Positions 60,357 through 60,485 of a stretch of DNA of 64,000 nucleotides are shown piece by piece. A model generated the notes under the pieces. The model searched no databases. It was not told the origin of the DNA and saw only the letters and a program-made list of their open reading frames with translations. Within the stretch, counting starts at the first letter, position 1; the number at the start of each line of letters is the position of its first letter. A program made the position numbers and the translations under genes. The stretch comes from an uncultured Actinomycetota bacterium (lineage in GTDB: Bacteria; Actinomycetota; Actinomycetes; JADGOV01), in the NCBI GenBank assembly GCA_963814355.1, contig CAWFCZ010000018.1, forward strand, positions 201,692 to 265,691. Direction: 5' to 3'.

Positions 60357-60398
60357 TGCGCAGCCGCCGCTTTTTCTATGTCGCCAGCCGGAGCTGAC
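60357..60398 (+). CDS. Candidate 13-aa leader peptide MRSRRFFYVASRS with tandem Phe-Phe-Tyr codons
   Basis: ATG CGC AGC CGC CGC TTT TTC TAT GTC GCC AGC CGG AGC TGA. Lies about 50 nt upstream of a terminator hairpin and 90 nt upstream of the DAHP synthase start. Confidence 0.4.
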
Positions 60399-60445
60399 GG
60401 CAGAACGCGCCCGCGTGCCAGCCCCGACTCCCCGAGAGCCGGGGT

Positions 60446-60475
60446 TTTTTGTTGCCGAGATGCCGGACAGGACAG
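60446..60475 (+). terminator. Intrinsic terminator-like hairpin CCCCG-AGAGC-CGGGG followed by TTTTTTGTT, about 15 nt upstream of the DAHP synthase ATG (candidate attenuator)
   Basis: Seen directly. A U-tract is rare in this GC-rich DNA. Its position inside a 5' leader rather than after a gene suggests attenuation. Confidence 0.45.
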
Positions 60476-60485
60476 GAGCAGTCAG

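Follow-up and report, generated by a model that had tools for sequence, protein, structure and literature searches.

We analysed a 64,000-nucleotide (nt) stretch of DNA from an uncultured actinobacterium (contig CAWFCZ010000018.1 of assembly GCA_963814355.1, positions 201,692 to 265,691 of the forward strand), referred to below as the window. In front of a gene for 3-deoxy-D-arabino-heptulosonate 7-phosphate (DAHP) synthase of type I-beta it carries an element, a 13-codon open reading frame (ORF) with consecutive Phe, Phe and Tyr codons followed by an intrinsic terminator, which is probably a ribosome-mediated (leader-peptide) transcription attenuator. By sensing the charging of Phe- and Tyr-tRNA, this attenuator would control the DAHP synthase gene; judged from sequence comparison and RNA folding, we give this reading a probability of about 80%. 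The element also seems to be part of, or descended from, a large family of aromatic leaders, apparently unannotated so far, on type I-beta DAHP synthase genes. Ribosome-mediated attenuation is a textbook mechanism, and DAHP synthase commits carbon to the shikimate pathway; in actinomycetes, a major source of natural products, it therefore determines how much Phe, Tyr and Trp, and how much of many aromatic secondary metabolites, can be made.

The leader ORF and the terminator

The leader ORF (13 codons plus stop, + strand) runs from the ATG at 60356 to the TGA at 60395–60397 and reads ATG CGC AGC CGC CGC TTT TTC TAT GTC GCC AGC CGG AGC TGA, with MRSRRFFYVASRS as its product. An earlier note on this DNA had described such an ORF with three consecutive aromatic codons, placing its start one base too high (60357). 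The putative regulatory codons UUU UUC UAU (Phe, Phe, Tyr) occupy 60371–60379 (+), and two of the three are rare synonyms ending in U. A predicted -10 hexamer, TACTGT (matching TANNNT), is located at 60343–60348 (+), 7 nt 5' of the leader ATG, and is invariant in the three closest relatives; no full -35/-10 site was detected in a scan of the leader region with the sigma-70 consensus. The distance of 7 nt between TACTGT and the ATG implies a transcript that is leaderless or has a leader of 1 nt, and the leader mRNA of the window is predicted to be leaderless.

Runs of T are rare in this DNA, as the earlier note had pointed out. The window has a GC content of 72.5%, and only two T runs of at least 5 were found on both strands of the 64 kb, one at 60371 (UUUUU within the Phe codons) and the other at 60445 (U6), both within the element. 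Among the 741 short ORFs (8–40 codons) of the window, the leader ORF is the only one with three consecutive aromatic residues. Since both T runs and the sole short ORF with an aromatic triplet sit within these ~100 nt, the arrangement of leader and terminator is far above chance.

The predicted terminator stem-loop occupies 60420–60446 (+), with the U6 tract at 60445–60450. Its core, CCCCGaCUC/GAGcCGGGG at 60422–60444, is extended to 60420–60446 by closing G-U and A-U pairs (-14.3 kcal/mol), and this hairpin with its U6 was the one site returned by a terminator scan of positions 59000–62000. It begins 23 nt past the leader stop, ~42–50 nt past the Phe-Phe-Tyr codons. The hairpin and the U6 tract reported earlier are thus present, but the tract does not immediately precede the DAHP synthase ATG (60486), from which it is separated by 35 nt. 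As is usual for attenuators, a short ORF enriched in codons for end products of the pathway lies upstream of the biosynthetic gene, and a predicted intrinsic terminator lies between this ORF and the structural gene.

Close relatives and a wider family of aromatic leaders

Few close relatives of the window DAHP synthase were found in the protein database, among them P0002 with 90% identity, and we compared contigs encoding DAHP synthases 88% (L084), 83% (L085) and 79% (L086 and L087) identical to it. L084 has the same gene order as the window, i.e. the EamA gene, the leader, the DAHP synthase gene and a convergent beta-eliminating lyase gene. Its leader reads GTG CGC ATC CGC CGC TAT TTC TTT GTC GCC AGC CGG AGC TGA, encoding MRIRRYFFVASRS, and differs from the leader ORF of the window by 4 changes (ATG to GTG, Ser to Ile, Phe to Tyr and Tyr to Phe). 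Despite these changes a start codon and the aromatic character are retained, the triplet being permuted (YFF vs FFY). The TACTGT box and the hairpin following the aromatic codons are identical to those of the window, and the terminator, although different in sequence, still forms a hairpin with a U5 tail. In L085 (1374–1470), where a glyoxalase gene lies upstream, the -10 box, the hairpins and the terminator are retained. L087 has a leader, MTCWFFSYYTGSGLMLDRVE, and a terminator with U6; because its upstream neighbour is a divergent gene for a cyclic nucleotide monophosphate-binding protein, this terminator cannot belong to that gene. L086 is without a leader, and its DAHP synthase gene abuts a glyoxalase gene. 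Scanning of metagenomes with the conserved hairpin core recovered only copies of the L084-type leader, plus one match inside an acyl-CoA synthetase-like gene, which was rejected as coincidental.

For a wider sample, one genome per species was scanned and 80 orthologous loci were taken, with DAHP synthases 69–77% identical to that of the window, from Streptosporangiales, Nocardioidaceae, Frankiales, Glycomyces, Motilibacteraceae and other Actinomycetes. A leader was scored when three or more aromatic residues fell within a stretch of 7 in an upstream short ORF and a TANNNT box preceded the start codon by 4–10 nt; the distance was almost always 6–8 nt. By this test 58 of the 80 loci were positive, whereas among controls from the same loci none of the 80 reverse-complemented sequences and 3 of 2768 further stretches of 330 nt passed. 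The earlier note had suggested testing its proposal by whether the leader is conserved in related genomes, and both the leader of L084 and these 58 equivalents at distant orthologous loci are what it called for. Typical family peptides are MRQQFWFWFGYRPGSRTVARQTLR, MRTAFWFWYGDGPVGRTVRHQVLR, MRSVIYFFWYDQPGRLVCQTLR, MQTQWYGFPDRDSRPGAC and MTHSYFFGHLPGLPVRGV; 3 further Nocardioidaceae loci have two aromatic codons only (..TYLFG..), L032 and L046 being matched by the covariance model described below. In 65 of 67 aromatic-rich leaders a TANNNT box lies 6–9 nt 5' of the start codon; a -10 box at this spacing, together with the lack of a Shine-Dalgarno sequence, implies leaderless mRNAs in the family as well. 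A GC-rich hairpin with the core GCCCCGGG...CCCGGGGC and a T-rich tail follows the leader stop by 10–32 nt in 62 of 65 leader-bearing loci, and the terminator hairpins of the family are located 20–100 nt before the DAHP synthase ATG. The architecture of -10 box, leaderless aromatic ORF, terminator and DAHP synthase gene is therefore common to the window and the family.

The amino acids encoded vary. Trp, Phe and Tyr are all present in 46 of 61 leaders, while 11 of the 61, that of the window included, have Phe and Tyr only. Codon order also differs among subfamilies (FFY, YFF, WFFSYY and FWFWFGY), with the in-frame aromatic content maintained. The element of the window could represent the minimal end, blind to Trp, of a so far undescribed and widespread family of leaderless attenuators on type I-beta DAHP synthase genes in many orders of Actinomycetes, most members of which would sense Trp, Phe and Tyr at once; we put the chance of this at about even.

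Aromatic codons account for 20.6% of the leader codons and 3.5% of those in the adjacent DAHP synthase genes. The choice of synonyms is shifted too, with UUU making up 57% of Phe codons in the leaders vs 1% in the genes, and UAU 59% of Tyr codons vs 2%. Fisher p-values for these two shifts (1e-42 and 1e-33) overstate the independence of the loci, which are related, but the effect size is very large. The leader UUU UUC UAU of the window fits this pattern, its DAHP synthase gene having TTT 0 times and TTC 6 times, and TAT once and TAC 4 times. The rare U-ending codons of the leaders would fit selection for slowly decoded sensor codons. Conservation also has the form expected of a coding sequence whose translation is predicted: starts are kept (ATG/GTG), aromatic residues are swapped for aromatic residues, a deletion in L085 is in frame, and the gaps in the ORF part of the family alignment (A1, below) are multiples of three.

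These comparisons bear on whether the hairpin and U6 simply terminate transcription of the EamA gene upstream, or belong to a small independent RNA, the ORF being untranslated or irrelevant. The EamA gene (59261–60193, +) is indeed on the same strand, 227 nt upstream, and L085 holds the structure with a single aromatic codon. On the other hand, leader and terminator accompany DAHP synthase where the upstream gene is a different one or divergent, and the EamA gene directly abuts the DAHP synthase gene, with no such element, in L012, L031 and L061. Furthermore, a plain terminator would not predict aromatic enrichment, rare synonyms, starts 6–9 nt past a -10 box or gaps in multiples of three. We therefore regard this explanation as quite improbable; the leader appears to keep company with DAHP synthase, whatever the upstream gene. 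In further loci that have no leader, it is a glyoxalase gene that directly adjoins the DAHP synthase gene, and in L002, L026, L051, L055, L065 and L074 the gene before it ends in a sequence like ...GSTVTLYVF and stop; this gene may encode a PASTA-domain kinase. The presence of the leader is therefore lineage-specific. In some loci tandem repeats of ~11–19 nt were seen between the terminator and the ATG (L036:2900–3000, L048:2904–3000 and L045:2938–3000; TTTTCATGAGCACACGC-like units in L036), and these could be operator repeats.

RNA structures and the proposed mechanism

Three structures are predicted in the leader RNA of the window. Segments 1 and 2 form a hairpin, GUCGcCAGC-CGGA-GCUGaCGGC, at 60380–60401 (+, -8.9 kcal/mol), which begins right after the Tyr codon and has the UGA stop within its 3' arm; we propose it as an anti-antiterminator, possibly also acting as a pause hairpin. 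Its sequence is invariant in the window, L084 and L085 except for one U to C change, which makes a G-U pair a G-C pair. The predicted antiterminator (60389–60426, +, -15.6 kcal/mol) pairs CGG.GCU (60389–60395) with AGC.CCG (60420–60426) and GGC (60399–60401) with GCC (60417–60419), and encloses a small hairpin at 60405–60416. Folding of L084 (-17.7) and L085 (-17.3) predicts the same antiterminator, CCGGaGCUG with CAGCcCCGG. The third structure is the terminator. In the ribosome-free leader fold of the window, a long stem encloses the 60380–60401 hairpin and the terminator is free.

Because equilibrium folding of full-length leaders cannot discriminate the states, the window transcript was cut ahead of the terminator 3' arm and folded with ribosome masks. 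The pairing probability of the terminator 5' arm was 0.15 with no ribosome, 0.60–0.69 with a ribosome stalled at the Phe/Tyr codons and 0.23 with a ribosome at the stop codon. Folding of this kind would provide the three states needed by the attenuation model, following the classical four-segment logic. The earlier note had asked for mutually exclusive terminator and antiterminator structures, and the three states expected are predicted by this folding, with an antiterminator that is weak in the window.

On this basis, the element may work as follows. From the TACTGT box, transcription would begin on the leader AUG itself or 1 nt ahead of it, and a ribosome would load on the 5'-terminal AUG. 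When Phe- and Tyr-tRNA are well charged, the ribosome would pass UUU UUC UAU and reach the UGA inside segment 2, covering that segment; as the stop codon lies inside segment 2, a terminating ribosome would block the antiterminator. Segment 3 would then pair with segment 4, and the terminator with its U6 would stop the polymerase 35 nt before the ATG. When charging is low, the ribosome would stall on the Phe/Tyr codons and cover segment 1 (60380–60388), leaving segment 2 (~60389–60401) free to pair with the terminator 5' arm (60417–60426) before the 3' arm is made; read-through, and more DAHP synthase, would result. With no translation, segments 1 and 2 would pair together and the terminator would form. 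What we infer is where transcription starts, that the ORF is translated, that ribosomes stall, that transcription terminates and that Phe/Tyr elicit a response.

Covariation was analysed in an alignment (A1) of 41 leaders of the main subfamily. The terminator of A1 comprises 13 bp, is 96% paired and has 7 compensatory pairs. The segment just past the aromatic codons (GGACCCG/GGCCCGG) can pair with the terminator 5' arm (CGGGUCC/CCGGGCC), and pairing in this antiterminator helix reaches 81.7%, two of its pairs being compensatory (GC/CG 14:13 and GC/AU 27:13). Its covariation score was matched by 0 of 500 shuffles, and sliding the partner by 1–3 columns reduced pairing to at most 56%. The GC/AU change in the antiterminator is matched by a C-G to U-A change in the terminator stem, so that three positions change together, although probably in one evolutionary step. 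The stretch that starts at the aromatic cluster and extends to the terminator 5' arm folds better than dinucleotide shuffles (family mean z = -1.69, with 97% below zero). In the main family the ORF follows the antiterminator 5' strand, with the stop codon near its apical loop, and a ribosome at the stop codon would melt the antiterminator; the terminator 5' arm has a pairing probability of 0.68 when the ribosome is stalled and of 0.47 when it is at the stop. Other calculations were less informative. RNAalifold on the truncated alignment gave 4 antiterminator pairs only, and MAFFT loses the register of the inner helices. Cognate and non-cognate duplex energies (-30.2 vs -26.3 kcal/mol, median rank 9 of 58) are weakly separated because the subfamilies share motifs, and this comparison is not relied upon.

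Main-family leaders start with AUGCGC and finish with CUGCGCUGA, a Leu-Arg-stop that is near-invariant at the nucleotide level. Columns 1–7 and 82–90 of A1 (e.g. L003:2849–2855 and 2915–2923) are complementary, GCGCA with UGCGC, and these leader ends could close the untranslated leader. The promoters of the main family read TGCGCTAnnnT, resembling the extended -10 (TGnGnTAnnnT) described for Corynebacterium.

Strong nucleotide-level conservation of the family hairpins, e.g. GCCCCGGG and CUGCGCUGA, might also be expected of an RNA that serves as the binding site of a ligand or protein (as in a riboswitch, or with a TRAP-like factor), with the ORF incidental. The mutually exclusive pairings, however, account for the conserved nucleotides, and what is conserved across subfamilies is the in-frame aromatic content, the sequence and order of the codons being variable. 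Moreover, none of the Rfam leader families matched positions 60100–60600 even at E values up to 10, and no Rfam family reached its gathering score in the element region of the window or in 11 related loci. We consider recognition by a ligand or protein very improbable. Weak matches to the Rfam small RNAs anti-hemB, NsiR1 and Hrs1 align to the terminator only and were discarded.

It may also be asked whether a leader that senses aromatic amino acids acts on transcription at all, or has as its output the initiation of DAHP synthase translation, through unmasking of the ribosome-binding site, or Rho-dependent polarity. Sensory short ORFs of this kind are known from mycobacteria (bioRxiv 10.1101/834739), where leaderless polycysteine short ORFs block structures that sequester a downstream ribosome-binding site; they resemble the window element, as proposed here, in being leaderless, sensory and actinobacterial and in that ribosome stalling on codons for the end product remodels the downstream RNA. 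Many family members, furthermore, have poor U tracts after the hairpin, e.g. UUCGCGUUC. Whereas the mycobacterial short ORFs work at the level of translation, making the ribosome-binding site accessible, the hairpin in the window is canonical and is followed by a U6 that is the sole such run in 64 kb, which points to transcription. The DAHP synthase gene's Shine-Dalgarno sequence, AGGAG (60474–60478, +), sits 24 nt past the U tract, and its predicted pairing is local, with the start of the coding region and not with the leader; leader-dependent sequestration of the ribosome-binding site is thus unsupported. In the family, too, the hairpin stems covary as stems 20–100 nt before the gene. An output through translation or Rho is accordingly judged unlikely, and transcription attenuation is preferred.

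Several observations weigh against attenuation by this element, or at least against a strong form of it. The regulatory codons number only three. In L085, an in-frame 6-nt deletion removes two of the three aromatic codons, giving MRRRRYAASRS with one Tyr; this leader may be a Tyr-only or a decaying sensor, and the loss shows that the sensor can decay or be retuned. About 1/4 of the orthologous loci are without a leader. In the window itself, the antiterminator region is no stabler than shuffles (z = +0.33), and only within a narrow range of ribosome footprints is the antiterminator the most stable fold. The terminator is the most stable equilibrium fold of full-length leaders in nearly all loci and ribosome-masked states, so that the switch must be kinetic, as in classical attenuators. 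A 5-bp hairpin before the U6, CCCCG-AGAGC-CGGGG (60430–60444, +), can persist with the antiterminator formed, and read-through may therefore be incomplete. Finally, a covariance model (R1) built from the 41 leaders of the main subfamily recovers other subfamilies at E values of at most 2e-4 (L087, which was also assigned the gene order of the window, E = 2e-4), yet its top match in the window, at exactly 60356–60453, scores 10.2 bits with E = 0.12, close to a chance site (E = 0.16) and to L084 (E = 0.18). In view of these weak scores, it is the shared position and architecture that argue for homology between the short-leader clade and the main family. Nevertheless, conservation of the leader, covariation of the terminator and antiterminator helices in the main family and the three states predicted for the window support the attenuator proposed in the earlier note.

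Two details concern these last matches. The 5-bp register CCCCG-AGAGC-CGGGG is peculiar to the window sequence and impossible in L084 or L085. The chance site of R1, at 31947–32043 (-), is the 3' end of a 250-aa ORF ending in ...AYRTLR and stop, where TTGCGCTGA is followed by a hairpin, mimicking the Leu-Arg-stop of the main family.

Gene context, known systems and implications

The DAHP synthase gene (60486–61523, +) encodes a type I-beta enzyme of 345 aa (PF00793 and PF18152), whose N-terminal regulatory domain is ferredoxin-like. Among relatives of solved structure, the best match is the enzyme from Thermotoga maritima (1RZM/3PG9, E = 1e-109, residues 1–330 aligned). The next gene (61578–62741, -) is convergent; the DAHP synthase gene is therefore monocistronic and the sole gene that the element could control. 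Like its Thermotoga homologue, the enzyme is presumably subject to allosteric inhibition via its ferredoxin-like domain. Elsewhere in the window, a thiamine pyrophosphate riboswitch (RF00059) was detected at 44996–45107 (+), with 57.2 bits against a gathering score of 54.3.

E. coli phe leaders have a Shine-Dalgarno sequence and runs of 5–7 Phe codons. The earlier note had taken pheA/pheST-type leaders as its model, and the type of regulation stands: the window shares with pheL-pheA and pheM-pheST (Rfam Phe_leader) a leader ORF that contains Phe codons, predicted alternative hairpins and an intrinsic terminator ahead of the structural gene. As a model, however, these leaders fit less well than aroR-aroF of Corynebacterium glutamicum, since the window leader is predicted to be leaderless, has 2 Phe codons and 1 Tyr codon and precedes the first common step of the pathway instead of the Phe branch.

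In C. glutamicum, the aroR leader (Phe-Tyr-Phe) upstream of the DAHP synthase gene aroF is reported to raise transcription of aroF when Phe is limiting (Neshat et al. 2014, J Biotechnol 190:55, on the account of PMC11802643, PMC4046766 and PMC7356990). Compared by description only, the two elements share an origin in Actinobacteria and a short leader with three aromatic codons (Phe-Tyr-Phe there, Phe-Phe-Tyr here) directly before a DAHP synthase gene, and aroR-aroF, likened on these grounds, appears to be the closest known case. The two also differ: C. glutamicum AroF is a type I-alpha enzyme, whereas the window gene is of type I-beta with a ferredoxin-like domain, and most of the family members found (46/61) also have Trp codons. 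It was the only case of a leader on a DAHP synthase gene that we found reported in the searchable literature.

For other amino acids, attenuation in Actinobacteria is documented at the trp, ilv and leu genes (PMC1262725, Seliverstov et al. 2005; PMC8079986), and leader peptides of Streptomyces lividans TK24 are mostly reported there as leaderless (PMC8079986). As portrayed in those texts, these leaders resemble that of the window in being 12–29 aa long, mostly leaderless and preceded by a TAnnnT -10 box, several with a hairpin and a U-rich stretch, at high GC; they differ in the amino acids sensed. For Phe and Tyr operons of Actinobacteria, the 2005 survey reported no conserved regulatory RNA structure in the upstream region (PMC1262725), and the consulted text of the S. 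lividans paper names no leader upstream of a DAHP synthase gene, the terms aroF, aroG, aroH and DAHP being absent from it (PMC8079986). We found no description of the DAHP synthase leader family in the searchable literature, and none in Rfam 15.

The attenuation mechanism itself is thus not new; new are the element of the window as a member, and the apparently unannotated family on type I-beta DAHP synthase genes. If the reading is right, the family would supply a new covariance model for genome annotation, and deletion of leader or terminator would be a simple way of raising aromatic flux by engineering. Leader-peptide attenuation of DAHP synthase would be common in the class and not a peculiarity of one genus, adding a layer of control above allosteric inhibition. 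Drift of the leader codons among close relatives (FFY, YFF and Y only) could then retune which amino acids gate entry into the shikimate pathway.

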